The notes beneath the pieces were generated by a model. That model saw only the letters and a list, made by a program, of their open reading frames with translations, was not told the origin of the DNA and did no database searches. From Candidatus Nomurabacteria bacterium RIFCSPLOWO2_01_FULL_42_17 (lineage in GTDB: Bacteria > Patescibacteriota > Minisyncoccia > Phycocordibacterales > UBA9973), in assembly GCA_001785985.1 (NCBI GenBank), contig MFVE01000005.1, positions 233,771-297,770 on the forward strand: 64,000 nucleotides of DNA, given 5' to 3'. Below, in pieces: positions 4,551 through 49,816 of this stretch (within the stretch, counting starts at the first letter, position 1; every line of letters starts with the position of its first letter). The translations under genes and the position numbers were made by a program.

Positions 4551-4590
4551 GCCCGACGCTTGCGGTCGGGCCCCCGACTTTACGTCGGGG
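4551..4590 (-). terminator. Tandem GC-rich hairpins downstream of nusA (overlapping its stop codon)
   Basis: gcccgac-gcttgcg-gtcgggc and ccccgac-tttac-gtcgggg lie back to back. On the minus strand they follow the nusA stop. Confidence 0.45.
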
Positions 4591-5740
4591 ACTGTTCGCT
4601 TTTGATCTCTTCGTCGCTTGCTACTGTTTTGCCGTCGCCTTTGATATCTATTCTCCAGCCGGTGAGTTTGGCTGCGAGGCGCACATTTTGTCCGCCTTTG
4701 CCGATAGCGAGCGAGAGCTGATCATCCGCCACTTCGATGGTGGCTTTGTGCGCTTCTTCGTCGATTTCAATGGAAATAACTTTAGCTGGTGAGATTGAAT
4801 TCGCCACAAAAACTTTGGTATCGAGAGACCAAGGTATTATGTCAATCTTCTCACCGCCTAATTCCTGCGTAATGGTGTTCACTCGGGTGCCTTTTTGCCC
4901 GACGCATGAGCCGACAGCATCGATGTGCTCGTCATTTGAATGGACTGCTATTTTGGAACGAGCGCCCGGTTCTCGCGCTATAAATTTTATTTCAACAATT
5001 CCATTTTGGATTTCTGGCGCCTCGATCGCAAAAAGTTTCTCGATGAATTTCGGATGAGTGCGAGAGAGACGCAGGTTGATACCTCTGGGCGTATCCTCTA
5101 CGTTGTAGAGGTATGCTCGTACACGCTGTCCTCTTTGGAAAAATTCTCCGGGAATCTGTTCTTCGGCCGGCAATATGCCAGTGGCGCGGTTGAAGTCAAT
5201 ATACACATTTCCTCTTTCGACTTTTTGCACGATTCCTCCGATTATTTCTCCTTCTTTTGTCCCGTATTCATCAATGATAGATGTGCGTTCCGCTTCGCGA
5301 ATCTTCTGGATTATGACTTGCTTGGCAGTCTGGGCGGCGATGCGTCCGTAATCTTCTTTTGTTTCAAGTGGAAAGACAATTTCATCATTCAGCTCCACCC
5401 CTTTTTTTATTTTTTTTGCGTCTTCCAAAAGGATATGATGCTCTGCATTAAAATGCACGCGCTCATCATCTTTTTCCTTTAATGAATATTCGCCTTCGTT
5501 TTTTTTGTCTGCATCTATGATCGCGATGGTTTCATCTACCACGATTTTTATTTGAAAGAACTCCGTTTTACCTGTTTCCAGGTCAAATTTTGATCGGATG
5601 ATTTGTCCTTTTTTGCCGTAATCTTTTTTGTAGGCGGCCGCCATCGCTTGCTCGATCGCGTCGAGTATTTTTTCTTTGGGAATTTTTCTTTCTTCTTCTA
5701 ATTGCTCTAAAGCTGATTTAAATGTTTTTAGATCTAACAT
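4580..5740 (-). CDS. nusA: Transcription termination/antitermination factor NusA
   Basis: 386 aa. N-terminal NusA domain, S1 domain and two KH domains (GEKIDIIPWS, AIGKGGQNVRLAAKLTGWRIDIK). Confidence 0.9.
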   Translation of the reverse strand: MLDLKTFKSALEQLEEERKIPKEKILDAIEQAMAAAYKKDYGKKGQIIRSKFDLETGKTEFFQIKIVVDETIAIIDADKKNEGEYSLKEKDDERVHFNAEHHILLEDAKKIKKGVELNDEIVFPLETKEDYGRIAAQTAKQVIIQKIREAERTSIIDEYGTKEGEIIGGIVQKVERGNVYIDFNRATGILPAEEQIPGEFFQRGQRVRAYLYNVEDTPRGINLRLSRTHPKFIEKLFAIEAPEIQNGIVEIKFIAREPGARSKIAVHSNDEHIDAVGSCVGQKGTRVNTITQELGGEKIDIIPWSLDTKVFVANSISPAKVISIEIDEEAHKATIEVADDQLSLAIGKGGQNVRLAAKLTGWRIDIKGDGKTVASDEEIKSEQSPT

Positions 5741-5760
5741 AGTGATTTATTAAATTTTAT

Positions 5761-5785
5761 AAAAAAAGCCCTGTTTCGACAGGAC
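5761..5785 (-). promoter_or_regulatory. Hairpin plus U7 tract in the nusA 5' leader (possible NusA-autoregulatory attenuator)
   Basis: On the minus strand, gtcctgtcgaaacagggc is followed by ttttttt about 20 nt before the nusA AUG. Confidence 0.3.
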
Positions 5786-5960
5786 TCATACGGAGTGATA
5801 ATATCACAATTTATCTTTCAATGCAACTTTTTTGGATGGGTGTGGACAGGGTAGTAGATTTTGACGAAGCCCTTTGGGCGCGCTACGCGCATCGCCAAAA
5901 TTCACTACCCTGTGGATAAGTGAGATTGAGGCACTCTATAATAGAGAGTATAATGTGATT

Positions 5961-7178
5961 ATGAAAATTTCTTCTTTAAAAATTTCTTTTGGACTAGCTT
6001 TTTCTTTTTTTTCTTTCTTATTTTTCTTATTCTACTTATTCTCTTTGCCTTTTATCGCGGGAGCTGGAGATGATGACAATATGGCCGGCTACGCTTGGTC
6101 TTCAAACATCGGCTGGATCAGTTTTAATAACACAAGCGGCGGCGGGAGTGTAGATTATGGTGTGAACAAGAACGCTGATGGCACATTAACCGGCTACGCT
6201 TGGTCTTCAAACATCGGCTGGATAAAATTCGGTGGTCTTTCTGGTTTTCCTTCTGGGGCGCAGACATATGCGCAGAATGCAAATGTGAGTGACGGTGAGC
6301 TAAGAGGATGGGCGAGAGCTTGTGCTGGTATGGATGATGAACCGCCTACACCGCCGAACCAAACAACTCCCAATAATACTTGTAGTGGTGATTCACGTAC
6401 TGATGGTTGGGACGGTTGGATCTCTCTTGCTGGCACGGGCTATGGCGTAACTTTGTCCGGTACTAGTTTCGAGGGTTATGCTTGGGGCTCGGATGTTGTA
6501 GGCTGGGTTGATTTTAGTGGTGTTGTTGTCGGCGCCGGCACTGGTACCTGCACTGATAGCACCCAAAATGGAGACGAAACAGGCATTGATGCCGGCGGTC
6601 GTTGCGACGAGGGTACTTGCTCGGATGGCATCCAGAACGGAAATGAAACTGCGGAAGATAGTGGCGGCCGTTGCGGAGCTGGCACCTGCACTGATGGCAG
6701 TCAAAATGGAGATGAAACAGATATTGACACTGGTGGCCGTTGTGACGAGGGCACTTGCTCGGATGGCATCCAGAACGGAAATGAAACTGCGGAAGATAAC
6801 GGCGGCCGTTGCGGAGTTAGCACTTGCTCGGATGATACCAAGAACGGTAATGAAACTGCAGTTGATTATGGCGGTCGTTGTATTGTAGAAGGCGACTGGA
6901 GTGATTGGAGCCCATGCGTGGGCGGTGATCAAACTCGTACTTGTACGAATCCGCCACCTTCCGGCGGTGGAGCTAATTGTAGCGGACCTTCTTCGCGAGT
7001 TTGCGGTTCTTCCGAAGACGGTACTTGTTCCCAAACTCATTACGACTGTTCTTCTCAAGAGACGAGCATCAATCAGATCAGCAGCCCTACCAAGTGGACA
7101 TGGACTTGTCCTGGCTCAGATGGCGGCGCAGATATAATCTGCACCGAAACCAAACGGCCCGGATTTATAGAGGATTAA
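5961..7178 (+). CDS. Secreted Cys-rich repeat protein with thrombospondin-like motifs (pilus-adjacent putative adhesin)
   Basis: The start is moved to the ATG at 5961 (MKISSLKISFGLAF... signal peptide, preceded by tataat). The protein has three GYAWSSNIGWIxF repeats, five to six tandem ~21-aa units of TC(S/T)DGxQNG(N/D)ETxxDxGGRC, and then DWSDWSPCVGGDQTRTCTNPPP..C.G, which resembles a TSP type-1 repeat. Confidence 0.65.
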   Translation: MKISSLKISFGLAFSFFSFLFFLFYLFSLPFIAGAGDDDNMAGYAWSSNIGWISFNNTSGGGSVDYGVNKNADGTLTGYAWSSNIGWIKFGGLSGFPSGAQTYAQNANVSDGELRGWARACAGMDDEPPTPPNQTTPNNTCSGDSRTDGWDGWISLAGTGYGVTLSGTSFEGYAWGSDVVGWVDFSGVVVGAGTGTCTDSTQNGDETGIDAGGRCDEGTCSDGIQNGNETAEDSGGRCGAGTCTDGSQNGDETDIDTGGRCDEGTCSDGIQNGNETAEDNGGRCGVSTCSDDTKNGNETAVDYGGRCIVEGDWSDWSPCVGGDQTRTCTNPPPSGGGANCSGPSSRVCGSSEDGTCSQTHYDCSSQETSINQISSPTKWTWTCPGSDGGADIICTETKRPGFIED

Positions 7179-7194
7179 ATGTTATACTGTAAGG

Positions 7195-8958
7195 ATGCAA
7201 ATCGATGAGGAACAGTTTAAGAAATTTATTTTAGAATCCGGACTTGTTTCTAAAACAGACTTTGATTCCGCCGCCAAGACAGCGGAGGAAAAAAAACAAA
7301 AAATTGGAAATATTTTGCTTTCCGAAGGAAAAATATCTGAAACCGATCTAAAGCGAACGGAAGCTTTCGTTTTAGGGGTGCCATTCATTAGTTTGCTCAA
7401 TGAAAAAATTGATTCGGCTGTGCTTTCTCTGATCCCTGAGCCGATCGCGCGCAATTACAACATAGTTGCCTATACCAAAAGCGAGCATGGACTGGAAGTC
7501 GCGATGCTGGATATTGATGACTTGCCAGTAATTGATTTTATTAAAAAAACTTCCGGGCTGAAAATTTTACCCAGGTTGACCGACACTTCTTCGATCAAAG
7601 CGGTACTTGTGCAATATAGGAAAAGTCTCAAAGCGGAATTTCAAAATATTATCCAGAAGGAATCTTCCACCTCTTTTGGAACTCCCGCAGATGTTGACGC
7701 GGGGAAAGAAGGCGAAAAATCGGAAAAGGCGTTAAAAGATCTGGCCGAAGATTTGCCCGTGATAAAGATTGTTGACTCTTTGATTTTTCACGCAATTTTG
7801 CAAAACGCGTCCGACATTCATATCGAACCTGGAGAACGCGAGCTCACGGTGCGCTACCGGATAGACGGTATCTTGCATGATGCCATGGTGCTCGATAAAA
7901 CCGCCGGTTCAGGGATCACTGCTCGCATCAAAGTGTTGGCGAATCTGAAACTGGATGAAAAAAGACTGCCTCAAGATGGAAGATTCAAGAAAGAACAGGA
8001 TGGAGAAAAGATTTCTTTTCGTGTTTCCACCTTACCCACTTTTTTTGGAGAAAAAACTGTCATGAGAATTTTAAAAGAAAACGCGCACGGATTTTCTCTA
8101 GAAACTCTCGGCTTCCACGGCGAAGCACTGGAGCGCATCCATAATTCTTTAATCCAAAAGACGGGAATGGTGCTAGCCACGGGACCCACAGGCTCCGGCA
8201 AGACGACGACCCTTTACACCATGCTGGATATTTTAAATAAGCCGGAAGTCAATATCTCTACGGTGGAAGATCCGATTGAATATCAAATGCCGCGGGTGAA
8301 TCAGACTCAAGTCAAGCCGGAAATCGGTTTGACTTTTGCGAATGGTCTTCGCTCGCTCCTGCGCCAAGATCCAGACATCATCATGGTGGGCGAGATACGC
8401 GATGGCGAGACGGCGGGACTGGCGGTAAATGCATCGCTGACCGGACACTTGGTTCTCTCCACTATTCATACCAATAGCGCCGCGGGTGCGATCCCGAGAC
8501 TCATCGACATGGGTATCGAACCTTTTTTGATCACCGCGACGGTGAAAGTGATCATCGCGCAGAGATTGGTGCGCAGGCTTACTTCAAATAAGGAAAAATA
8601 TTTTTTGTCGGATGCCGAATTTAAAAATTTAGCTAGAGTTGTGGATCTAGATCGGGTCCTGACATTTCTGAAAACTGAAAACATTGTAGGCGCTAAAGAT
8701 ACTTGGGATAAAATTTCTTTTTATAAACCAGTCAAGAGTACTGAGTTCGAAGATGGCTATTCAAACCGGATCGGCATGCATGAAGTTTTAAAGATTTCGC
8801 CTACTATCAAAGATATGATTATTACCGGAAAGTCTCAAGATGATATAGAGGTACAGGCGAAAAAAGAAGGCATGATGACCATGTTAGAAGACGGAGTCTA
8901 TCAAGCCGTCCTCGGCGTGACTAGCCTAGAAGAAGTATTTCGAGTTGTTTCGGAGTAA
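7195..8958 (+). CDS. pilB: Type IV pilus assembly ATPase PilB (GspE family)
   Basis: T2SSE N-domain, Walker A GPTGSGKTTT, the Asp box and His box (VGEIRD, LTGHLVLSTIHTN). 587 aa. Confidence 0.9.
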   Translation: MQIDEEQFKKFILESGLVSKTDFDSAAKTAEEKKQKIGNILLSEGKISETDLKRTEAFVLGVPFISLLNEKIDSAVLSLIPEPIARNYNIVAYTKSEHGLEVAMLDIDDLPVIDFIKKTSGLKILPRLTDTSSIKAVLVQYRKSLKAEFQNIIQKESSTSFGTPADVDAGKEGEKSEKALKDLAEDLPVIKIVDSLIFHAILQNASDIHIEPGERELTVRYRIDGILHDAMVLDKTAGSGITARIKVLANLKLDEKRLPQDGRFKKEQDGEKISFRVSTLPTFFGEKTVMRILKENAHGFSLETLGFHGEALERIHNSLIQKTGMVLATGPTGSGKTTTLYTMLDILNKPEVNISTVEDPIEYQMPRVNQTQVKPEIGLTFANGLRSLLRQDPDIIMVGEIRDGETAGLAVNASLTGHLVLSTIHTNSAAGAIPRLIDMGIEPFLITATVKVIIAQRLVRRLTSNKEKYFLSDAEFKNLARVVDLDRVLTFLKTENIVGAKDTWDKISFYKPVKSTEFEDGYSNRIGMHEVLKISPTIKDMIITGKSQDDIEVQAKKEGMMTMLEDGVYQAVLGVTSLEEVFRVVSE

Positions 8959-8963
8959 CAAAT

Positions 8964-8993
8964 TTGACAGATCTCCGTCATATTTAGCATAAT
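8964..8993 (+). promoter_or_regulatory. Sigma70-like promoter (TTGACA-N18-CATAAT) driving the inserted gene at 9054
   Basis: ttgaca at 8964-8969 and cataat at about 8988-8993, immediately after the pilB stop. Confidence 0.4.
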
Positions 8994-9024
8994 GTACAGG
9001 TAGGGTGTTCCTCAAAAATAAACA

Positions 9025-9038
9025 GGGCACATGTGCCC
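9025..9038. promoter_or_regulatory. Perfect 14-bp palindrome GGGCACATGTGCCC between promoter and SD (candidate operator)
   Basis: Seen directly. It lies 15 nt upstream of the ATG at 9054, just before an AGGAG Shine-Dalgarno. Confidence 0.35.
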
Positions 9039-9053
9039 AGAAAGGAGTAAGAC

Positions 9054-9530
9054 ATGTCTTACTTTTCGTCGGGTCAGTTGAACCAGCTCGGGGACGCGCT
9101 GGAGAGAGCGGGATGGCTTCCCGAAGATGTGACTAATCTTGGTCAAGCGGGGAAAGCTCGCCTGGCTGAGATCAGACTGTCGCTCCAGAGAAATGACATC
9201 ATCACTCTGATTGAGACGAAGCAAACAGAGCCTTGGCTCCATGACGATCAAAAAGCGGATTTGATTGTTCAGGGCTATAAGATCTTGGCGTACCTCGATC
9301 AAAATGGCTTGCTTGATTCCTGCGCCAATCTCGGCGAACTGCGGTCCATCCAGTTCAAAGGGATAGAATTTTTCCAGCGATATTTCGCCGGCAAAGTTAT
9401 CTTTGGCTGGGGAGGGGTTGATGGTGAGAGCGTGCCATGCTTGTTCGTGTTTCAAGGGGAGGTGGTGCAGTCTCGGCGCCAACTCAACAATCGTTGGCAT
9501 ATAGATGACCCTGGTTTACGTCGCATTTGA
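9054..9530 (+). CDS. Hypothetical protein (158 aa) on a GC-rich insert inside the pilus operon
   Basis: Strong SD (aaaggag, N6, ATG). It has its own promoter and terminator and about 50% GC against a 35-40% background. No family recognised. The antisense ORF 9012..9500 is rejected. Confidence 0.55.
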   Translation: MSYFSSGQLNQLGDALERAGWLPEDVTNLGQAGKARLAEIRLSLQRNDIITLIETKQTEPWLHDDQKADLIVQGYKILAYLDQNGLLDSCANLGELRSIQFKGIEFFQRYFAGKVIFGWGGVDGESVPCLFVFQGEVVQSRRQLNNRWHIDDPGLRRI

Positions 9531-9561
9531 TTGCCACGGCGATAACGTCCATCCACACACA

Positions 9562-9607
9562 GGTGAGCTGTCGGATTATTCCGCGCTCACCCGTTTTTTA
9601 TTTTTAT
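9562..9607 (+). terminator. Rho-independent terminator after the 9054 gene
   Basis: ggtgagc-tgtcggattattccgc-gctcacc followed by ccgttttttatttttat. Confidence 0.6.
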
Positions 9608-9628
9608 ATGTTAAAATATAACCTACCG

Positions 9629-10846
9629 ATGCTTTTTTCTTACACAGCAAAATCAAAAGCGGGTGGAATCGTAGAAGGCGTGCAAAGCTCGGCGGATCGC
9701 CTCGCGCTCGCCCGGGAATTGCGCAGTCGCGGGGACATACCCTTGTCGATCAGAGAAAAAGATAAAAATTTTTTAGCTAAAATATCGACTCTTACAAATA
9801 TTTTTTCCAAAGTCAGTGTCAATGAGCAGATTATTTTCACCAAGAATCTAAGCGGGATGGTCAAGGCGGGGCTGTCCCTCTACCGAGCTTTATCTGTTTT
9901 AAAAAAGCAGACTAAAAATCCTAAAATGAGTACTATTCTAGCGTCTCTGACAGACGAGATAAATTCTGGAGGGACGCTTTCCTCTGGGCTGGCAAAATTT
10001 CCTGATGTTTTTTCAACTCTTTTTGTCTCAATGGCTAAAGCCGGTGAAGAGTCCGGCAATCTCGCCGGGGCGCTCTCGGATATTGGATTGAATTTAGAGA
10101 AGTCGCATGCTTTGACGAAAAAAATAAAAAGCGCGCTCATTTATCCGGGAGTTATTCTCTCCGCGATGGTGGTGATTGCCGTGCTGATGTTTGCTTTTGT
10201 GGTGCCGACTCTGGCCGGCACCTTCAAAGAGCTCGGGGTTACGCTACCCACTTCTACTCGCGTCCTCATTTTCATTGGTAATTTTTTCTCTCATCATTTA
10301 ATATTCACTTTTATTATTATCATTGGCATGGCTTTGGGCTTGTATCTGATTTTTCGCTCTAAATTTATGGCTAGATATATTGATTATATTATTGTTAGGC
10401 TTCCAATCATCGGGAATTTAGCCAAAGAATTAAATACCGCTCGCACTGCTCGCACCATGTCTTCTCTCTTGTCTTCTGGAGTCCCCATCACTCGTGCAGT
10501 CGAGATCACGGGAGACGTGGTTCAGAATATTTATTATAAAAAAGTTTTGAATGAAGCTAAAACTGGCATAGAAAAAGGCGCCCCATTTTCTAGAGCCTTT
10601 GAAATGAATAATAAACTTTATCCGGTTATGATGTCGGAAATGGTTCAAGTCGGGGAAGAAACCGGAAAATTGTCAGATATGCTGTTAGAAATTTCTTTGT
10701 TCTATGAAGGTGAAATTGAAAATAAAACTAAAAATCTCTCCACGATTATTGAGCCTCTCTTGATGATCGTGATCGGCGCGGGAGTTGGCTTTTTCGCCAT
10801 CTCGATGATTTCGCCACTTTATTCGATTTTAGGCAGTATAAAATAA
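9629..10846 (+). CDS. pilC: Type IV pilus platform protein PilC (GspF family)
   Basis: Two T2SSF repeats and three to four TM segments. The tracked ORF starts at a TTG at 9527. The start chosen is the ATG giving MLFSYTAKSKAGGIVEG (typical PilC N-terminus). An alternative ATG lies at 9608. Confidence 0.85.
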   Translation: MLFSYTAKSKAGGIVEGVQSSADRLALARELRSRGDIPLSIREKDKNFLAKISTLTNIFSKVSVNEQIIFTKNLSGMVKAGLSLYRALSVLKKQTKNPKMSTILASLTDEINSGGTLSSGLAKFPDVFSTLFVSMAKAGEESGNLAGALSDIGLNLEKSHALTKKIKSALIYPGVILSAMVVIAVLMFAFVVPTLAGTFKELGVTLPTSTRVLIFIGNFFSHHLIFTFIIIIGMALGLYLIFRSKFMARYIDYIIVRLPIIGNLAKELNTARTARTMSSLLSSGVPITRAVEITGDVVQNIYYKKVLNEAKTGIEKGAPFSRAFEMNNKLYPVMMSEMVQVGEETGKLSDMLLEISLFYEGEIENKTKNLSTIIEPLLMIVIGAGVGFFAISMISPLYSILGSIK

Positions 10847-11307
10847 TGACCAAAAACTTTTTTAAAAAGGGAATAACTCTCGTAGAAGTATTGATTGTCT
10901 GCTCCGTACTCGGCATAATCCTTGCGGTTGTTATCCCACAATTTGCAAAGACTAGAGAACTGCAAGTGCTGAAGTCCGCCACAGGCGATATTTTGTCTTC
11001 TTTAAATAAAGCGCGTTCGCAGACGTTGGCGTCCCTAAATTCTTCTTCATATGGAGTGCATTTTCAATCTAATAAAGTTATAATTTTCAAAGGCACAGTT
11101 TTCTCACAAAGCGATATAAACAATGAAACGGTAGCCATCACTTCGCCCGCGACTATATCATCCATCACCTTGGTGGGAGGAGGCGCAGATATTTATTTTA
11201 ATAGGCTAAGCGGTGTGCCCAGCAAGACGGGATCGGTAATTGTTTCCGGCCCGAATTTTACTAAAACTATCACAATAGATGCTACGGGTGCTGCAAGTGT
11301 GAATTAA
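10846..11307 (+). CDS. Type IV (pseudo)pilin, prepilin-type N-terminal cleavage/methylation domain
   Basis: KKG|ITLVEVLIVCSVLGIILAVVIP (G-1, E+5, hydrophobic helix). Confidence 0.75.
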   Translation: MTKNFFKKGITLVEVLIVCSVLGIILAVVIPQFAKTRELQVLKSATGDILSSLNKARSQTLASLNSSSYGVHFQSNKVIIFKGTVFSQSDINNETVAITSPATISSITLVGGGADIYFNRLSGVPSKTGSVIVSGPNFTKTITIDATGAASVN

Positions 11308-11844
11308 ATGATGAAAATTTTTTCAAAAAATAAAGGTTTCACCCCCACACCTTTTAAAAGAAAAGGTGTGAGCCTACGAAGTAGGCGGGGGTTCATGGTA
11401 ATCGAAATATTAGTCGCTGTTTCGATCATCACTGCTTCGATCTTAGCGGCAATGACAGTTACTCAAAAATCCATTCATGTTTCCCGCCAAGCTTTTCACA
11501 CCACTCAGGCGGCATTTCTACTAGAAGAGGGAGCCGAAGCGATGCGCATTGCACGCGACAATGCGTGGAGCAATATTTCTGCACTCACTGTTGGCGCAAA
11601 TTATTATCCTACTTTTTCGGGAGGTACTTGGACATTGTCAGCTGTGGCGAATACGGTGGGAATTTTTACCCGTACGGTAGTTTTGGCAGATGTGAAGCGT
11701 GATAATACTACTAAAGACATCACGAGCTCGAGTGGAACAGTAGATGTCGGAACAAAGCTAGTCACTGTCACAGTATCCTGGATGGAGGGAGGAACGACAG
11801 TCGCTAAAACTTTGGAATTTTATATAATGGATATTTTTTCATGA
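11308..11844 (+). CDS. Prepilin-like protein (long leader peptide)
   Basis: RRG|FMVIEILVAVSIITASILAA has the prepilin motif, with a 28-aa basic leader. Confidence 0.6.
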   Translation: MMKIFSKNKGFTPTPFKRKGVSLRSRRGFMVIEILVAVSIITASILAAMTVTQKSIHVSRQAFHTTQAAFLLEEGAEAMRIARDNAWSNISALTVGANYYPTFSGGTWTLSAVANTVGIFTRTVVLADVKRDNTTKDITSSSGTVDVGTKLVTVTVSWMEGGTTVAKTLEFYIMDIFS

Positions 11845-12347
11845 TCAAAGTTACAAATTACAAAAATTTAAACGACGGTTATACAATATTTGAACTTCTG
11901 TTTTATATTTCTTTTTTCGCTCTGCTTTCTTTGTTAGTGATCAATGCGATGGTTACGATGACCAAATCATTTAAGGAAACTGCAATTCAAGCAGAGTTAG
12001 CGCAGAGCGGATCGATTATGGAAAAAATGTCTAGGGAAATCAGGCAAGCCTATGATATAAGTTCGATTAATTCTACTGACTTGAATTTGAATACTACGGA
12101 CAGCGCGGGCGCAGAAAAAACAGTGGAATTTTTACTTTCTGGCTCCAATGTACAATTTTTGGAAAATAGTGTTTTAACTGGCAATTTAAATGCACCGAAT
12201 ATCGTAGTCACGGGTCTCTCATTTACGCAAATAATTACTGCCAAAGGCAAAGCAGTCAAGATAGTTCTTTCTGTTCGCTCCAGTAATGATAGTCTCGCTC
12301 GCGTCCAAGATTTTTATGATACAGTCGTGTTGCGAGGAAACTATTAA
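11841..12347 (+). CDS. Prepilin-like protein
   Basis: NDG|YTIFELLFYISFFALLSLLVINA has the prepilin motif. The ORF overlaps the previous gene by 4 nt. Confidence 0.6.
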   Translation: MIKVTNYKNLNDGYTIFELLFYISFFALLSLLVINAMVTMTKSFKETAIQAELAQSGSIMEKMSREIRQAYDISSINSTDLNLNTTDSAGAEKTVEFLLSGSNVQFLENSVLTGNLNAPNIVVTGLSFTQIITAKGKAVKIVLSVRSSNDSLARVQDFYDTVVLRGNY

Positions 12348-14514: not shown

Positions 14515-14554
14515 TGGTCTGGCCGGGGTGGGGGGCCCCGGGGAACCGAGGACC
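14515..14554. repeat. GC-rich 40-nt palindromic repeat, family B, copy 1 (intergenic tpiA-pgk)
   Basis: tggtctggccggggtggggggccccggggaaccgaggacc. It is identical to the copy at 16584-16623. Confidence 0.8.
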
Positions 14555-14591
14555 TGAAAAAATTTTACTTTACTAAACTTTTTGTAAAAAC

Positions 14592-15728
14592 ATGCGAAGC
14601 ATTGAACAAATAAAAAATATAAAAGGAAAAACTGTACTTTTGCGGGTGGATTTTAATGTACCTATGAAGCCTGCCCGCCGAAGAGGAGGGGACGGCGTGG
14701 TGGAGGATGATTTTCGAATTAAAAAAGCTCTGCCGACGATAGAATTTTTACAGAAAAAAAATGCAAAAATAATTTTGATTACGCATTTAGGGACTGGCGG
14801 AGAGACTTTGGCCGGAGTGGCAAAAGTTTTAAATAAATTTATCAAAGTTACTTTTGTCCCCGAAATTGTTGGCCCAAAAGTTTCGCAGGTGGTTCGAGAC
14901 ATGAAAGAAGGCGAGGTAATCTTGTTGGAAAATTTGAGGAATGATAAGGGAGAAAAAGAATGTAACGAAATTTTTGCGATGAGTTTGGCAAAATTAGCCG
15001 ATATTTATGTAAACGAGGCTTTCCCTGTTGATCACAGAGAGGATGCTTCTATTGTTCTCTTGCCAAAGCTATTGCCTGCATACGCAGGTATCCAGTTATC
15101 CGAGGAAGTGAAAAACTTATCTCGCGCTTTCAAAAATTCCAAGCACCCCTTCTTATTTATTTTAGGTGGAGCTAAATTTTCCACTAAAATGCCTTTAATC
15201 GAGAAGTATTTGAAATTATCAGATTATGTTTTCGTCGGCGGAGCGCTGGCGAATGATTTTTTGAAAGCGCGTGGATATGAGATAGGCAAATCCCTTTTTG
15301 ATAACACTGATTATGATTTTAAAAAAGTATTAAAGAATCCAAAACTTATTTTACCAGTTGATGTTGTTGTCAAAAAAGGAGATAAATCAATTAATAAAAA
15401 GATAAACGAGATAGAAAAAGATGAAAACATTTTAGACATTGGAGAAGAGTCTGTGAAAAATCTTAGTCTACTTATTAAAAAGTCTAAATTTATATTATGG
15501 AATGGACCACTGGGTAAATATGAAGACGGCGGAGCAGAGTCTACGAAAGAAGTATTAAAATTGGTTGCAGCTTCAAAAGCGGAAAGTATTATCGGCGGAG
15601 GAGATACAGTCGCTCTAATCACCCAGATGAAAATGGAAAAAGATTTTTCTTTTATATCAACTGGTGGTGGAGCGACGCTAGATTTCCTCGCAGACGGCAC
15701 TCTGCCCGGCATCAAAGCGCTTGAGTGA
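14592..15728 (+). CDS. pgk: Phosphoglycerate kinase
   Basis: VLLRVDFNVP, a hinge and the C-terminal nucleotide-binding domain (GGGDT, GGGA). 378 aa. Confidence 0.9.
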   Translation: MRSIEQIKNIKGKTVLLRVDFNVPMKPARRRGGDGVVEDDFRIKKALPTIEFLQKKNAKIILITHLGTGGETLAGVAKVLNKFIKVTFVPEIVGPKVSQVVRDMKEGEVILLENLRNDKGEKECNEIFAMSLAKLADIYVNEAFPVDHREDASIVLLPKLLPAYAGIQLSEEVKNLSRAFKNSKHPFLFILGGAKFSTKMPLIEKYLKLSDYVFVGGALANDFLKARGYEIGKSLFDNTDYDFKKVLKNPKLILPVDVVVKKGDKSINKKINEIEKDENILDIGEESVKNLSLLIKKSKFILWNGPLGKYEDGGAESTKEVLKLVAASKAESIIGGGDTVALITQMKMEKDFSFISTGGGATLDFLADGTLPGIKALE

Positions 15729-16101: not shown

Positions 16102-17856
16102 ATGTCTGAATTACTTGATATTTTGCTTGAAAAAAGGGGGATTACACCCGAACAGAAAGATATTTTTTTGAATCCGGATTACAAGCGAGATTTACACGAC
16201 CCTTTTTTGATGCGAGATATGGAAAAGGCCTGCGTACGACTCTATGAAGCAATAGATAATAAAGAAAAAATCTTAATTTATGCGGATTATGATTGCGATG
16301 GGATACCCGGAGCGGTGATTTTGAATGACCTTTTTAAATTGATAGGGTATAAAAATTATGAAGTTTATATTCCGCAAAGAAATTCCGAAGGCTATGGACT
16401 CAATCTGGAAGCAATAAAAAAATTTGCTGAATCAGGCGTGAAACTTCTGATCACGATTGACCTCGGCATTACAGCCGTAGCGGAAGTGGCTCAAGCAGAA
16501 GTGGATGGCATTGATGTGATAATTACAGACCATCACTTGCCTCGCCTAGCTCAAAAAGATTCGCAAGCAGAGGATTTTCGAGCTGGTCTGGCCGGGGTGG
16601 GGGGCCCCGGGGAACCGAGGACCCGAGAAAATCCTCTGGTTGCTGAATCTTTCATTCTTCCTCGTGCTTGTGCAATCTTGAATCCGAAGGTAGACAGTTA
16701 TCCCGAAAAGATGTTGTGCGGGGCGGGGGTTGTTTTCAAATTTGTACAGGGATTTATAAAAAAATATGGCGAATATTTTAAGATTCGAGAGGGCGCAGAA
16801 AAATGGATGTTAGATATGGCTGGGCTCGCGACGCTTTCTGATATGGTTCCACTAACAGGAGAGAATAGAGCTTTGGCGTATTTTGGAATGAAGGTGTTAA
16901 AGAAATCTCCTCGTCCGGGCTTGCAAAAACTTTTAGCCAAGATGAATATTGAGCAGAAATATCTCTCGCCGGACGATATAGGCTTTATGGTTACGCCACG
17001 GCTGAACGCCGCGTCTAGGATGGATGATCCGATGCGGGCGTTTGAACTTTTGGCGACAGAAGACGAAGCGCAAGGTGGGATACTCGCGAATCATTTGTCT
17101 AAAATAAATGATGAAAGGAAAACCATTGTGACAAGTATCATGCGAGAAGTTCATAAGAAATTTGAAACGGAAACGACGTCTGAGGTGATAGTGATAGGCA
17201 ATCCGAAATGGCGAGTCGGCATCCTCGGATTAGTAGCGGGAAAAATTTGTGATCAATATGAAAAGCCCGTCTTTGTTTGGGGTAAAGATGAGAATGATTG
17301 CATCAAGGGGTCTTGTCGGAGCGATGGCTCGGTCTCGGTGGTAGAACTCATGACTGAAACTGCGGGATCTTTTATAGATTTTGGCGGTCATGAGCTGGCT
17401 GGGGGTTTTACGGTTGAAACTGAGAAAATTCATTTCTTACAAGAGCAATTGTCTTTGAATTTTAAAAAAGTGAAGCGAGATAAACTGGATGATATCGCAA
17501 ATTATGATATTAAGTCCGGCTTAGATATTGTCAATATGAAAAGCTGGCGTGAAATAGAGAAGCTTGAGCCTTTCGGACTGGGTAATTCCAAACCCATCTT
17601 CCTTTTTGAGGGAGCAAAAATAGAAAAAATAAAAAAATTCGGCAAAAATGGCTCTGGCGAGCATTTGGAAATTATTTTTTCTGATTCATCTAATTCTCAC
17701 GGTAAAAAAGCTAAAGCTATTTCTTTTTTCTCTAATATTGATTCTTTTAAAAAGAAATTGGAAGAAGGACTTGGTGTAAATTTGCTCGCCACTTTTGATT
17801 TATCTAGATTTAGAGGTAGGGAAGAGCTAAGATTGCGGATAGAAGATATTTTTTAA
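16102..17856 (+). CDS. recJ: Single-stranded-DNA-specific exonuclease RecJ (DHH/DHHA1)
   Basis: DYDCDGI and ITDHH motifs and a DHHA1 C-terminal region. It carries the in-frame 40-nt GC-rich repeat, translated as AGLAGVGGPGEPRT. Confidence 0.85.
   Translation: MSELLDILLEKRGITPEQKDIFLNPDYKRDLHDPFLMRDMEKACVRLYEAIDNKEKILIYADYDCDGIPGAVILNDLFKLIGYKNYEVYIPQRNSEGYGLNLEAIKKFAESGVKLLITIDLGITAVAEVAQAEVDGIDVIITDHHLPRLAQKDSQAEDFRAGLAGVGGPGEPRTRENPLVAESFILPRACAILNPKVDSYPEKMLCGAGVVFKFVQGFIKKYGEYFKIREGAEKWMLDMAGLATLSDMVPLTGENRALAYFGMKVLKKSPRPGLQKLLAKMNIEQKYLSPDDIGFMVTPRLNAASRMDDPMRAFELLATEDEAQGGILANHLSKINDERKTIVTSIMREVHKKFETETTSEVIVIGNPKWRVGILGLVAGKICDQYEKPVFVWGKDENDCIKGSCRSDGSVSVVELMTETAGSFIDFGGHELAGGFTVETEKIHFLQEQLSLNFKKVKRDKLDDIANYDIKSGLDIVNMKSWREIEKLEPFGLGNSKPIFLFEGAKIEKIKKFGKNGSGEHLEIIFSDSSNSHGKKAKAISFFSNIDSFKKKLEEGLGVNLLATFDLSRFRGREELRLRIEDIF
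16584..16623. repeat. GC-rich 40-nt palindromic repeat, family B, copy 2 (in-frame inside recJ)
   Basis: An exact copy of 14515-14554, positioned by counting codons from the recJ start. Confidence 0.8.
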
Positions 17857-39323: not shown

Positions 39324-39359
39324 ATAGCATATTGGTAACGGCCGTCACCAATATGCTAT
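39324..39359. promoter_or_regulatory. 36-bp near-perfect palindrome ATAGCATATTGGTAACGGCCGTCACCAATATGCTAT
   Basis: 17 of 18 positions pair. It shares ATAGCA...ACGGCCGT...TGCTAT with the palindrome at 39942. Confidence 0.6.
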
Positions 39360-39368
39360 CATGTATTC

Positions 39369-39941: not shown

Positions 39942-39977
39942 ATAGCACAATAGAGACGGCCGTCTCTATTGTGCTAT
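39942..39977. promoter_or_regulatory. 36-bp perfect palindrome ATAGCACAATAGAGACGGCCGTCTCTATTGTGCTAT
   Basis: All 18 pairs complementary. It lies 12 nt after the stop of the 39369 gene. Confidence 0.6.
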
Positions 39978-40040
39978 TACGTTATTATATATTGTCTATT
40001 TCTTTTTAATTTTTTATTTTGACTATGATATAATCAAGGA

Positions 40041-47011: not shown

Positions 47012-48493
47012 ATGACGAGCAAAGACAAAAAATATTTCTATATCTCTACGACGATTCCTTATGTAAACGCAGATCCTCACATTGGTTTTGCGCTGGAGCT
47101 GGTGCAGTCTGATGTGATTGCGAGATATCAACGCCTCATCGGACGTGAAGTATTTTTTAGCACTGGCACAGATGAATACGGACAAAAGATCTGGGAAGCG
47201 AGCCAAAAAGAAGGAAAAAATGTTCAGGATTATGTAGACCATTATGCGCAAAAATTTATAGAGCTCAAAGAGATACTCAATTTATCTTATGATAATTTTA
47301 TCCGAACTACCAGCAAAGAACACAACCTAGCGGCTCAAGAATTTTGGCGTCTTTGCGAGAGGAAAGGTGATATTTATAAAAAAATATACCGAGGACTTTA
47401 TTGTATCGGGTGCGAGAGATTTATCACCGAGAAAGATTTGTTGGATGGATATTGTTCTCTGCATCCGGGCAAGAAACCCGAGATGGTGGAAGAGGAAAAT
47501 TATTTTTTCAGACTGACAAACTATAAAAAACAGCTTCTAGAATATCTTTCAGATGAAAAAGTCGTCTTTCCGGAGTGGAGGAGGAAAGAAGCCATTGATT
47601 TTGTAAATGAGGGCATGGAAGATTTCTCGATCTCGCGCAGTGCCGAACGTTTTTCTTGGGGTATACCGATACCGGGGGATGATACGCAGGTGATGTATGT
47701 CTGGTTCGGCGCTTTCATAAATTATCTCTCGACCTTGGGATGGCCCGGAAGAACCTCACCCCAGCCCTCTCCTTATAAAGGAGAGGGAGGAAGTAATTTT
47801 GAAAAATTCTGGCAAAGAGGGCAGACGGTCCAGATGGCCGGCAAAGACATGGTCAAATTTCAGTCTGTCATGTGGCAGGGGATGTTGATGTCCGCAGGTA
47901 TGCCTACCACTGGTACTATTGTTTATCATGGCTTTATCACTGGTGAAGGCGGAGTAAAAATTTCTAAATCTGTGGGGAATGGGATACACCCGAACGATAT
48001 TGTGTCCGAATATGGCACGGATGCCCTGCGATATTTTCTTTTGCGCGAAATTTCGACATTCGAAGATAGCCCCTTTACGATAGAACGATTTAAGGAAGCC
48101 TACAATGCGAATCTCGCGAATGGTTTGGGGAATTTGGTTTCACGTATTCTTACTCTTTCTGAAAAATATTTAGACAAGTGTCCAGAAATTGGAGAGGGAT
48201 CTGATTTTAGAGAATATTTTAGCTTTTTTGAAAAATTTGATCTGAAACAAGCAGCAGACTATGTCTGGAATGAGATAGGAGAGCTGGATAAATTTATTCA
48301 AGAAACAGAGCCGTTCAAGGTGGTGAAGGTAGATGCGCAAAAAGGGAAGGAAATAATAGCAAACATGGTCCTTCGTTTATATCAAATAGCTCAAATGCTG
48401 GATCCAATCATGCCGGAGACAAATATATTGCTAAAAAAATTAATTCGAGAAAACAAAAAACCGGAAGCCCCTTTATTCCCACGCAAAGATTAA
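47012..48493 (+). CDS. metG: Methionine--tRNA ligase (minimal form)
   Basis: The HIGH region (ADPHIGFA), a CxxC knuckle and VKISKS (KMSKS). It contains the in-frame GC-rich hairpin coding SPQPSPYKGEGGS. Confidence 0.88.
   Translation: MTSKDKKYFYISTTIPYVNADPHIGFALELVQSDVIARYQRLIGREVFFSTGTDEYGQKIWEASQKEGKNVQDYVDHYAQKFIELKEILNLSYDNFIRTTSKEHNLAAQEFWRLCERKGDIYKKIYRGLYCIGCERFITEKDLLDGYCSLHPGKKPEMVEEENYFFRLTNYKKQLLEYLSDEKVVFPEWRRKEAIDFVNEGMEDFSISRSAERFSWGIPIPGDDTQVMYVWFGAFINYLSTLGWPGRTSPQPSPYKGEGGSNFEKFWQRGQTVQMAGKDMVKFQSVMWQGMLMSAGMPTTGTIVYHGFITGEGGVKISKSVGNGIHPNDIVSEYGTDALRYFLLREISTFEDSPFTIERFKEAYNANLANGLGNLVSRILTLSEKYLDKCPEIGEGSDFREYFSFFEKFDLKQAADYVWNEIGELDKFIQETEPFKVVKVDAQKGKEIIANMVLRLYQIAQMLDPIMPETNILLKKLIRENKKPEAPLFPRKD
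47765..47787. repeat. GC-rich hairpin repeat, family C, copy 1 (CCCTCTCCTT-ATAA-AGGAGAGGG), in-frame inside metG
   Basis: The same hairpin occurs at 51975-51997 and, in a variant form, at 52034-52058. Confidence 0.7.
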
Positions 48494-48534
48494 ATAGCAA
48501 TACATAGGTTTAACCTATGTATTGCTTAAACTAT

Positions 48535-49113
48535 ATGTATAAGAATATTAAAATAATTGCGGAAGTAAAGACGCAATCGCCCTTTGGTTATAAATCAGAT
48601 AATACATGGAATGAATTATTTAAAGTTGCTAATAAAATAGGAGATATTATTTCTATTCATACAGATGATAGATGGGGTGGCTCGTTTGATTTAATTAAAA
48701 AAGCTAGATCATTGACTAAAAAGCCAATTTTAGCCAAAGGAATACACGAGAGGGATGAAGATATACAAAAAGCAATTGATGCTGGGGCAGATTGGGTGTT
48801 GGTCGTAGGTAGAATTCCTAGAGTTCATCTAGAAAAATGTTTGATTGAACCTTTAACCCTTCAGGAACTTAAAAATATTCCAGAAAGTTACAAAGCGGTA
48901 TGGAATAGTCGTGATTTATTGAATGGAAAATTTAAAAAAGAAAGTTTTGAAGAAGCCAGGGGTCTATTTAAAGGTTGGCTTTGCCAAGCAAGCAATATCA
49001 AGACAGTGGATGATATTAAAAAGGGAGCTGAAGCTGTTCTTGTCGGTACGTATTTATTGGATTTTGAAAAATCTGTGAGTTATACACAGATAAACTCTAA
49101 ATACATAGGTTAA
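48535..49113 (+). CDS. Indole-3-glycerol-phosphate synthase-like (TrpC-like, divergent and short) TIM-barrel protein
   Basis: IIAEVKTQSPFGY, ISIHTDDRWGGSFDLIKKAR and PILAKGI...AIDAGADWVLV resemble IGPS motifs (IIAE.K.ASPS.G, ISVLTD...F.GS). No other trp genes are in the window. The start is moved to MYKNIKII. Confidence 0.45.
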   Translation: MYKNIKIIAEVKTQSPFGYKSDNTWNELFKVANKIGDIISIHTDDRWGGSFDLIKKARSLTKKPILAKGIHERDEDIQKAIDAGADWVLVVGRIPRVHLEKCLIEPLTLQELKNIPESYKAVWNSRDLLNGKFKKESFEEARGLFKGWLCQASNIKTVDDIKKGAEAVLVGTYLLDFEKSVSYTQINSKYIG

Positions 49114-49141
49114 ACCTATGTATTTATGTTATCATATACTT

Positions 49142-49816
49142 ATGAATAGAAAAGTGCCATTTGTGGAAGGGGAATATTATCATGTATACAATCGCGGGGT
49201 TGATAAACGGGTTATTTTTCAAGATGTTGTAGATTATAAAAGATTAATTTTGCTATTGAAAATATTAAATACTACACAAAATATAATTGTGCGCGATCTT
49301 TTTAAAAATAAAACTTATGAAGAAATTATTTCTGAAAAAATAGCTGATCCTATTGTGGCAATAGGTGCGTATTGCTTAATGCCGAATCATTTTCATATAT
49401 TAATTACCCCATTGGTTGAAAAGGGTGTAGAAAAATATATGCAAAAAATACAAACAGCCTATACAATGTATTTTAATAATAAAAATGAAAGATCTGGGGC
49501 TTTATTGCAGGGGACATTTAAGTCTCAACATTTAGATACTGATGAATATTTGAAATATATTTATTCATACATACATTTAAACCCAGCAAAATTGAAAGAT
49601 AAAGACTGGAAGGAAAAAGGGCCCAGAGATTTTCAATCTTTGAAAGAATTTGTGTTGAGCTATAAATATTCAAGTATAGGGGAGTATTTAAAAGATGATT
49701 TCGTTATTATAAATAATACTCCTTTCCCGACTTACATGGAAGATTATAAATCCAAAGAGGAATATTTTAAGATGATGGTCGATGATTGGCTTAGATACCA
49801 AAATACAGAGGTTTAA
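49142..49816 (+). CDS. REP-associated tyrosine transposase (RAYT) / IS200-like Y1 HUH transposase
   Basis: GEYYHVYNRG, the HuH motif MPNHFHILI and the catalytic Tyr motif YIYSYIHLNPA. The start is moved to MNRKVPF. Confidence 0.8.
   Translation: MNRKVPFVEGEYYHVYNRGVDKRVIFQDVVDYKRLILLLKILNTTQNIIVRDLFKNKTYEEIISEKIADPIVAIGAYCLMPNHFHILITPLVEKGVEKYMQKIQTAYTMYFNNKNERSGALLQGTFKSQHLDTDEYLKYIYSYIHLNPAKLKDKDWKEKGPRDFQSLKEFVLSYKYSSIGEYLKDDFVIINNTPFPTYMEDYKSKEEYFKMMVDDWLRYQNTEV

Follow-up and report, generated by a model that had tools for sequence, protein, structure and literature searches.

Organization of the pilB-pilC region

The window analyzed here is a 64,000-nucleotide stretch of the genome of Candidatus Nomurabacteria bacterium RIFCSPLOWO2_01_FULL_42_17, a member of the Candidate Phyla Radiation (CPR), in which the type IV pilus genes pilB and pilC are separated by a segment that includes a 158-amino acid open reading frame (ORF). 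The segment consists of a promoter, a leader with two predicted RNA hairpins, the ORF and a terminator (Table 1). It can probably be considered a stand-alone expression cassette of a family of variable proteins found in the diversity-generating retroelements (DGRs) of CPR bacteria, which was inserted between two normally abutting genes and now represents a stranded copy.

The pilB-pilC gap is 670 nt in the window, versus 14, 3, and 5 nt in L171, L172, and L173, respectively, the three nearest relatives inspected, in which PilC is 78-79% identical. In all three a GGAG at the end of pilB is the ribosome-binding site of pilC. An earlier note on this DNA had placed the true start of pilC at about 9629, which agrees with the PilC homologues, 405 amino acids long with a start equivalent to the ATG at 9629; its coordinates for pilB, the promoter, the palindrome, the Shine-Dalgarno (SD) sequence, the ORF, the terminator, and the antisense ORF were correct as well. 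The comparison of spacings favors insertion, and none of the three relatives has a gene at this site.

A further relative, L004, is syntenic with the window (gene order pilins-TIM-PGK-HIT, flanking proteins 63-81% identical to those of the window). In L004 a homologous cassette lies between PGK and HIT, and the window genome has no cassette at that place. Since homologous cassettes occupy different sites in related genomes, the window segment is an insertion and not a native pil gene: the position expected of a native type IV pilus component is empty in L171, L172, and L173, and the homologue is located elsewhere in L004. Neither terminal repeats nor a target duplication were found in the window insert, which also contains no transposase or integrase ORF. 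The description of the segment in the earlier note as a foreign, self-regulated module within the pilus operon holds in that it is a self-contained unit and was inserted; what does not hold is the use of its GC excess as a sign of foreignness, as discussed below.

The L004 insert is bounded by a 20-nt direct duplication, GCATCAAAGCGCTCGGATGA (4577-4597 and 5288-5308), that corresponds to the overlap of the convergent PGK and HIT ends; this overlap sequence is present as a single copy in the window, near 15705-15725. The duplication could be either a target-site duplication or a duplication selected for keeping both gene ends intact.

The insertion separates the GGAG at the end of pilB, the SD sequence of the relatives, from pilC (window 9596-9631), and because the cassette ends in a strong terminator, transcription of pilC and the downstream pilin genes would need either read-through or a new promoter. 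The sole promoter-like element before pilC is TGtTAAAAT, a candidate restart promoter from which it is possible that pilC would be transcribed with a 5' untranslated region of only ~4-6 nt, as a nearly leaderless mRNA. Family cassettes can therefore move and split tightly coupled operons, in this case by cutting pilC from the ribosome-binding site at pilB and placing a terminator before it.

Table 1. Features of the pilB-pilC region (positions are those of the window)
Feature	Position	Strand	Evidence or remarks
pilB, type IV pilus assembly ATPase (upstream context)	7195..8958	+	T2SSE match, E 1.6e-120
Inserted segment, pilB stop to pilC start	8959..9628	.	670 nt, 48.7% GC
Putative sigma-70-type promoter, TTGACA-N18-CATAAT	8964..8993	+	Consensus match 11/12
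Antisense 162-aa ORF (shadow ORF)	9012..9500	-	No family match
Leader hairpin 1, palindrome GGGCACATGTGCCC (14 nt, perfect)	9025..9038	+	5-bp stem, CAUG loop, -8.1 kcal/mol
Shine-Dalgarno sequence AGGAG, 6 nt upstream of ATG	9043..9047	+	AAGGAG in nearly all family leaders
Leader hairpin 2, 10-bp stem (9043-9052 / 9057-9066), CAUG loop (9053-9056)	9043..9066	+	-8.1 kcal/mol
158-aa ORF, hypothetical protein A2917_03345, DGR variable protein homologue	9054..9530	+	Homology search
N-terminal "head" module, residues 1-54, MS..SGQLNQLGDALE.AGW..EDVT.LGQ	9054..9215	+	Homologue comparison
C-terminal domain, ~100 aa, widely conserved part of the family	9216..9527	+	
Variable region-equivalent region, codons 122-158	9417..9527	+	Comparison with active relatives; no cognate template repeat found
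Intrinsic terminator, hairpin 9559-9594 followed by U-tract TTTTTTATTTTT	9559..9606	+	Folding energy
Extended -10-like TGtTAAAAT, 11 nt upstream of pilC ATG	9609..9617	+	Read from sequence
pilC, platform protein (downstream context)	9629..10846	+	T2SSF match; 405 aa, same as relatives

The protein family

No match for the ORF on either strand was found in Pfam, NCBIfam, or PHROGs. A word-indexed protein search identified four homologues, P0002 to P0005, with 39-59% identity; the closest, P0002, is 59% identical (E 1.6e-47) and P0005 is 39% identical, and the genes of both have paired variable regions (VR) and template repeats (TR). A profile search against 1.8 billion cluster representatives extended the family to 855 clusters at E <= 1e-3, of which 447 reach E <= 1e-10; conservation is found in residues ~55-157. 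The earlier statement that the protein has no recognizable family is correct for the curated libraries but not for profile comparison, and the close homologues are DGR targets.

The head module, MS..S.GQ[LM]NQLGDALE.AG[WF]..[ED]DVT.L, is joined, in different proteins, to no fewer than three kinds of variable C-terminal domain. Some family proteins, such as P0007 (792 amino acids) and P0014 (658 amino acids), have three tandem variable-type domains of ~100 amino acids behind a common N-terminal region, and P0014 includes two different variable-domain types in a single protein. An AlphaFold2 (AF2) model of the head module is helical, with low confidence, and the predicted fold of the C-terminal domain weakly resembles proteins with a C-type lectin fold; Foldseek comparisons with PDB and BFVD and a profile search of PDB sequences gave nothing significant. 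No relatives were found in viral contigs, and no signal peptide, prepilin leader, or transmembrane segment was detected in the sequence of the ORF product. The rate of nonsynonymous substitution (dN) in the part of the gene outside the VR is 0.29-0.30, with synonymous substitution (dS) saturated, which indicates that the gene is under purifying selection. By its homologies the gene can be considered an uncatalogued DGR variable-protein gene, with no retroelement found within ~83 kb of sequence around it.

Diversity-generating retroelements in the relatives

In the relative L002 the last 110 nt of the target gene (VR, 1196-1305) recur 520 nt downstream as a TR (1716-1825). The two copies differ by 17 mismatches, all of them at TR adenines and none elsewhere. 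In L001, L002, and L003 the TR is followed by a reverse-oriented bAvd-like gene and then by a gene for a 344-amino acid reverse transcriptase that has the motifs LGNLTSQ and YADD and matches RVT_1. A VR in a target gene together with a TR, avd, and a reverse transcriptase is the signature by which these loci are recognized as DGRs. The same target-TR-avd-reverse transcriptase architecture, again with adenine-only differences, is present in L005.

A metagenome scan added 35 loci of the wider superfamily. A TR without non-A mismatches was found in 15 of the 26 superfamily loci scanned, and at these 15 loci, wherever the contig was long enough, the reverse transcriptase is 54-65% identical to that of L002. 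At active loci the VR differs between samples (L154 versus L155, and L150 versus L152). For seven other superfamily members, with 5 kb or more of flanking sequence on the side that was examined, no TR or reverse transcriptase was found; stand-alone copies of the family are common.

DGRs are abundant in CPR bacteria, and their targets are small proteins without recognizable domains or membrane anchors (PMC5758913; PMC8144416). The window ORF resembles the variable proteins described from the CPR set and the "unknown VR" classes UVR1-6 (Wu et al. 2018, PMC5758913) and the targets of DGR clade 2 (Roux et al. 2021, PMC8144416) in that it is small, has its VR at the extreme C-terminus, and includes no Pfam domain, signal peptide, or transmembrane segment. 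Its close homologues have beside them a TR, an avd in reverse orientation, and a reverse transcriptase of the CPR type, and their VRs differ from the TRs at adenines only. Unlike those targets, the window copy has no TR, avd, or reverse transcriptase in ~83 kb and shows no variation between assemblies. The location of the VR at the C-terminal end of a ligand-binding domain is shared with TvpA of Treponema denticola (PDB 2Y3C) and Mtd of the Bordetella phage BPP-1 (PDB 1YU0), both of them DGR variable proteins of defined structure that have a C-type lectin fold. On the other hand, neither has sequence similarity to the window ORF, whose domain has only ~100 amino acids, and both are surface or phage-tail proteins, while the window protein has no export signal.

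CPR DGR target proteins are abundant. Because published surveys find targets only beside a reverse transcriptase, stand-alone copies have remained uncatalogued and are annotated as "hypothetical". The window copy illustrates that a GC-rich intergenic cassette of a CPR genome can be recognized as a DGR-family gene by homology and by the footprint of AAY codons (Y, pyrimidine) described below. The current understanding of DGRs is not overturned by these results.

Two further observations were made at the DGR loci. Noncoding sequence is conserved between L002 and L005, even though their targets are only ~40% identical, both in the VR-TR spacer (L002 1310-1715, L005 915-1300) and just after the TR (L002 1826-1870, L005 1427-1470); examples are TAGGTGAATAT, CCAGTATCCAT..GAGTATC, TAGAGTGGTG, and TTCATTTCTCTC...GGAGAGTTTTGT. 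These stretches, which have no Rfam match, may be structured parts of the DGR RNA. Also, tRNA genes are located directly upstream of family DGR targets in L142 (395-469), L147 (354-523), and L156 (198-269 and 1001-1071), and may be integration hot spots.

A stranded copy or a remote target

The search for a TR or a reverse transcriptase extended, relative to the gene, from about -18.5 kb to +65 kb, i.e. ~83 kb of the 326-kb contig; the extensions beyond the window (~9.5 kb upstream and 10 kb downstream) came from further assemblies of this organism. No TR was found in the window or the extensions by an A-tolerant scan of both strands, and tblastn with the L002 reverse transcriptase as the query revealed no reverse transcriptase in either. 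The window contains no second family member, and no reverse transcriptase of the source genome was among the best 120 of more than 8000 relatives. In the 1800 nt surrounding the gene, the window is 100% identical to four other assemblies. The 90% cluster includes one variant protein, P0006, whose difference is at residue 106 and hence not in the VR.

The sequence of the VR-equivalent region nevertheless retains traces of a DGR. Ten of the 11 window codons at the positions of AAY in the L002 template end in pyrimidine (background 51%, P = 0.007). Positions that are not A in the L002 template are conserved in 64% of the cases in the window VR, versus 39% of the A positions (P = 0.02), and dN in the VR is 0.61-0.83, about twice the value of the rest of the gene. 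The AAY footprint and the raised dN of the VR, taken together with the selection acting elsewhere in the gene, point to a real coding sequence with a C-terminus shaped by adenine mutagenesis. At the 3' end of the VR the window has CCTGGTTTACGTCGCATT, while active relatives and their TRs have the GC-rich CCCGCTCTCCGTCGCAA(G), and the differences are at non-A positions. In active relatives the VR is followed by inverted repeats; in the window only the terminator follows. In the Bordetella phage model, retrohoming needs a GC-rich initiation of mutagenic homing (IMH) sequence at the 3' end of the VR as well as a hairpin or cruciform.

With neither a TR nor a reverse transcriptase within ~83 kb, and with no sequence difference between assemblies, the window copy is probably stranded and static. 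Its product would most likely be a binding protein of fixed sequence, composed of a conserved N-terminal head and a small C-terminal domain, perhaps folded in a C-type lectin-like manner.

Several points weigh against a stranded cassette. The search covered ~83 kb of a 326-kb contig, and DGRs can reach targets at distances above 100 kb (Wu et al. 2018, PMC5758913), so that the static state is no more than probable. The five identical assemblies are consensus sequences from overlapping sample sets, in which minority variants are invisible. As to the expression signals, the promoter match taken alone is at chance level, and a regulatory role for the leader hairpins would follow from structure and conservation alone; since the hairpin stems overlap coding sequence, part of that conservation is protein constraint.

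The first of these points leads to the possibility that the gene is still actively targeted by a DGR at another place in this genome, which would rewrite 9417-9527 in trans. Remote, non-adjacent targets are documented, and avd, TR, and reverse transcriptase act in trans, with Treponema as a precedent (PMC5758913); such targets were invisible to the pipeline of Roux et al., by their own account (PMC8144416). The intact ORF under purifying selection and the AAY footprint kept in its VR are consistent with a live target, as are the seven other family members that likewise have no TR or reverse transcriptase within 5-6 kb, and DGR reverse transcriptases are very common in Nomurabacteria. Against this stand the empty region from about -18.5 to +65 kb, the identity of the VR among five assemblies when active relatives vary between samples, and a VR 3' end that departs from that of active relatives at non-A positions and is followed by no GC-rich hairpin. 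Besides, none of the remote targets reported by Wu et al. belongs to the CPR set, and a single target is usual for CPR DGRs (PMC5758913). We consider rewriting in trans rather unlikely.

One candidate Nomurabacteria DGR was tested, that of a GC-42 bin from the same samples (P0208, L165-L170; L167). It was rejected, as it has a different target protein and its TR is mismatched to the window VR. The second accession of P0208 probably belongs to another bin.

A two-hairpin leader at the translation start

The earlier note had pointed out a 14-bp palindrome and a strong AGGAG SD sequence upstream of the ORF. Both are present, the palindrome is perfect, and the SD sequence is conserved in the family. 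A second element, absent from that note, is an 18-nt perfect palindrome (half-sites AGTAAGACA and TGTCTTACT, 9046-9063) centred on the start codon. Perfect palindromes of 18 nt are expected ~0.24 times per window; those of 14 nt occur 10 times versus about 4 expected, so that a single one of these is not rarer than by chance. The palindrome, the SD sequence, and the start region are nevertheless taken as real because they are conserved at the same place in homologues from unrelated loci, and the homologues become similar to the window in nucleotide sequence from ~9014-9026 on, near the palindrome.

In RNA both palindromes would fold into hairpins. Hairpin 1 of the window, GGGCA-CAUG-UGCCC, ends 15 nt upstream of the AUG. 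Most relatives have a longer form with a 9-12 bp stem, GGACGAGTTC-loop-GAACGTGTCC, which includes G-U pairs; in the long stem GGACGAGUUC-loop-GAACGUGUCC the inner stem is variable but compensated. A compensatory change is also seen between GGCAC..GTGCC (L001, L005, and L159) and GGCTC..GAGCC (L135). Hairpin 2 pairs AGGAGUAAGA (9043-9052), which includes the SD sequence and the spacer, with codons 2-5, and the AUG spans its loop.

A constant order was found in 24 non-redundant family leaders: a hairpin ending 14-19 nt upstream of the AUG, an A-rich spacer, AAGGAG, and the AUG hairpin. The latter is present in 23 of the 24, with a mean stem of 6.7 bp; for 45 other gene starts of the window the mean is 1.18 bp and the longest stem 5 bp. 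Counts for hairpin 2 were made both in a register-aware manner, with two registers, and on a gap-free sub-alignment. In this gap-free alignment of 16 sequences, 83.6% of hairpin 2 cells pair, versus 28-41% when the register is slid, and the number of double-sided changes is 11, compared to 3.3 +/- 2.2 in shuffles, none of which reached 11 in 500. Stem positions 4-8 show AU, UA, GC, CG, and GU pair types. RNAalifold found no structure in a MAFFT alignment of the leaders, which we attribute to the variable length of hairpin 1 and the two registers of hairpin 2. A generic statistic, the best upstream hairpin, did not separate family leaders (8.3 pairs) from control genes (7.2 pairs), and for hairpin 1 only the conservation of position and sequence is informative. 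No region of the window matched Rfam 15 at the gathering threshold, hits in 8800-9800 at a permissive threshold did not exceed chance level, and a scan of 13 related loci with the same release identified tRNAs only. The leader accompanies the N-terminal head module and is absent in family members with other N-termini.

Many family leaders have in addition a long distal hairpin of conserved sequence (..CAUAGC.AAAAG..loop..CUUUUGCUAUG..) located 60-110 nt upstream of the AUG, as in L142 (~575-630), L147, L156, L162 (~5880-5935), L164, and L001 (3410-3470). This hairpin is missing from the window copy, and L004 retains a remnant, GCTATGAC.

The earlier note had interpreted the palindrome as an operator. 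If so, the gene would be a foreign one under transcriptional control, with a dimeric DNA-binding regulator acting on the palindromes CACATGTG and GACATGTC. The DNA does contain two perfect palindromes that share an ACATGT core and have their centres 23 bp apart (9031.5 and 9054.5), and compensatory changes such as that between GGCAC..GTGCC and GGCTC..GAGCC preserve DNA symmetry as well. However, in most relatives hairpin 1 is not palindromic, having a non-symmetric loop of 3-6 nt in its 9-12 bp stem, which is unlike an operator. G-U (G-T in DNA) pairs are frequent and the mirror A-C mismatch is rare, as expected for RNA of the sense strand. The palindrome lies at a fixed distance from the SD sequence and the AUG but at roughly 15 to 135 nt from the promoter, depending on the relative, and the cassette is accompanied by no regulator gene. 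These properties argue for an RNA hairpin, and a transcriptional operator appears improbable.

The function of the leader is likely translational control. With the SD sequence and the first codons paired in hairpin 2 and the AUG in its loop, the start site would be closed by default, and initiation should be low unless the hairpin is opened; alternatively, a binding factor could hold it shut, as in a switch of the MS2 operator type. The opener or lock may be a protein, maybe the N-terminal module of the product itself, a helicase, or a physical signal. In MS2 and Qbeta the coat protein-bound replicase operator is a hairpin that contains the start codon, and RNA thermometers sequester the SD sequence and the AUG. 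The family leader has in common with these operators a short hairpin with the AUG across the loop and the SD region paired with the first codons, kept in the family by compensatory changes. It differs from them by a second hairpin (ACAUGU core) before the SD sequence, by being tied to a single N-terminal module in CPR bacteria, and by its absence from Rfam; the likeness is one of structure only. No description of a two-hairpin leader of this kind, occluding the start site, was found, and it has no Rfam match.

As a tentative proposal, which we hold to be less probable than its opposite, the head, composed of hairpin 1, the SD sequence, the start-codon hairpin, and the ~50-amino acid module and combined with at least three variable C-terminal domains, could be an undescribed translational control unit of the variable proteins of CPR DGRs. 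It would perhaps be an autoregulatory operator bound by its own N-terminal module, and frozen stand-alone copies of it would have been domesticated repeatedly, sometimes in type IV pilus operons (the window and L138). A leader that occludes the start site would provide a handle on the timing of production of a hypervariable protein.

Association with type IV pilus genes

The location of the cassette could be adaptive if the protein were a functional accessory of the type IV pilus, such as a variable adhesin or a specificity factor. The proteins targeted by DGRs generally bind ligands or serve in attachment (PMC8144416; PMC10221324), the pilin genes of the shared syntenic region lie ~3 kb from the L004 copy, and a distantly related stand-alone family member is located between pilM and pilO/pilB/pilT/pilC in L138. 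In contrast, the nearest relatives have no gene at the pilB-pilC site, six other stand-alone copies are found amid unrelated housekeeping genes, and the DGR-linked copies are away from pilus genes. The protein has no export or prepilin signals, and the cassette, with its own promoter and terminator, interrupts the coupling of pilB and pilC. A dedicated pilus function seems to us about as doubtful as the transcriptional operator discussed above.

The L138 locus (4624-12281) belongs to a distant CPR genome, with PilB 40% identical. Its family member, at 5857-6348, has promoter-like and terminator-like sequences of its own and is another, independent occurrence of the family within a type IV pilus operon. 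The association of the family with pilus genes is tentative.

Promoter, terminator, base composition and antisense ORF

The TTGACA-N18-CATAAT promoter described in the earlier note is present, though its match is no rarer than expected by chance: matches of at least 11/12 occur twice in 64 kb, versus 2.4 +/- 1.4 in shuffles. Transcription would start near 9000. Homologous genes have their own TTGACA-type or extended -10 promoter upstream, at a variable distance. The clean terminator reported after the ORF was also found, with a hairpin of -19.2 kcal/mol (z = -5.4) that none of 200 shuffles equalled in stability, followed by a U-tract. A first terminator scan had passed over the 9559-9606 hairpin as a result of its loop limit of 3-8 nt.

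The GC content of the ORF, estimated previously at about 50% and above that of its flanks, is 51.2%, and that of third codon positions (GC3) is 57.2%. Both are the highest of the 48 genes in the window, the others having 40.3 +/- 4.5% GC and 38.6 +/- 7.1% GC3, and the deviation of the ORF is only about 2.4-2.6 standard deviations. However, in 16 of 16 loci the family gene has a higher GC content than the host locus around it, by a mean of 13 points, at host values of 32-54%; in the same survey the family VRs were A-poor. Since the GC excess is a family trait, it is no proof of recent transfer and the insertion cannot be dated by composition, so that the excess loses the meaning of foreign origin once given to it.

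The equally long ORF on the opposite strand, said before to lack signals, is present and is best described as a shadow of the coding + strand: it has no match in Pfam, NCBIfam, or PHROGs and no translation signals, while homology, codon-level conservation, and translation signals are all in the + frame. That the region is a structured non-coding RNA, or the antisense ORF a real gene, as its GC-rich, promoter- and terminator-bounded nature and the similar length of the antisense ORF might suggest, is hardly tenable, with Rfam empty at gathering and permissive thresholds, no tRNA or tmRNA detected by ARAGORN, and an effective refutation in the + frame by hundreds of protein homologues, conserved residues, and a dN well below dS.

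The second most GC-rich gene of the window (49.5%) is the ORF upstream of pilB (5874-7178), which codes for a repeat protein with no Pfam match. A 69-nt unit (C..GxQNGxETxxDxGGRC) is repeated in tandem four times in it (6536-6880), and the motif GYAWSSNIGWI is present twice.

Other repeats in the window

A 49-nt GC-rich direct repeat, TGGTCTGGCCGGGGTGGGGGGCCCCGGGGAACCGAGGACC..., is found in two 96% identical copies at 14515-14563 and 16584-16632. The first lies in the TIM-PGK spacer and the second within the recJ ORF (16102-17856), between the two arms of an inverted repeat, GAGGATTTTCGAG / CGAGAAAATCCTC. Possibly this is a miniature element inserted in such a way that the recJ frame continues through it. 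Long intergenic palindromes similar to each other (e.g. ATAGCATATTGGTAACGGCCGTCACCAATATGCTAT) also occur in pairs, at 39324-39364 and 39942-39982 and at 48484-48552 and 49085-49153, and are probably related bidirectional terminators. The only other 18-nt perfect palindrome of the window (39951) lies in one of them.

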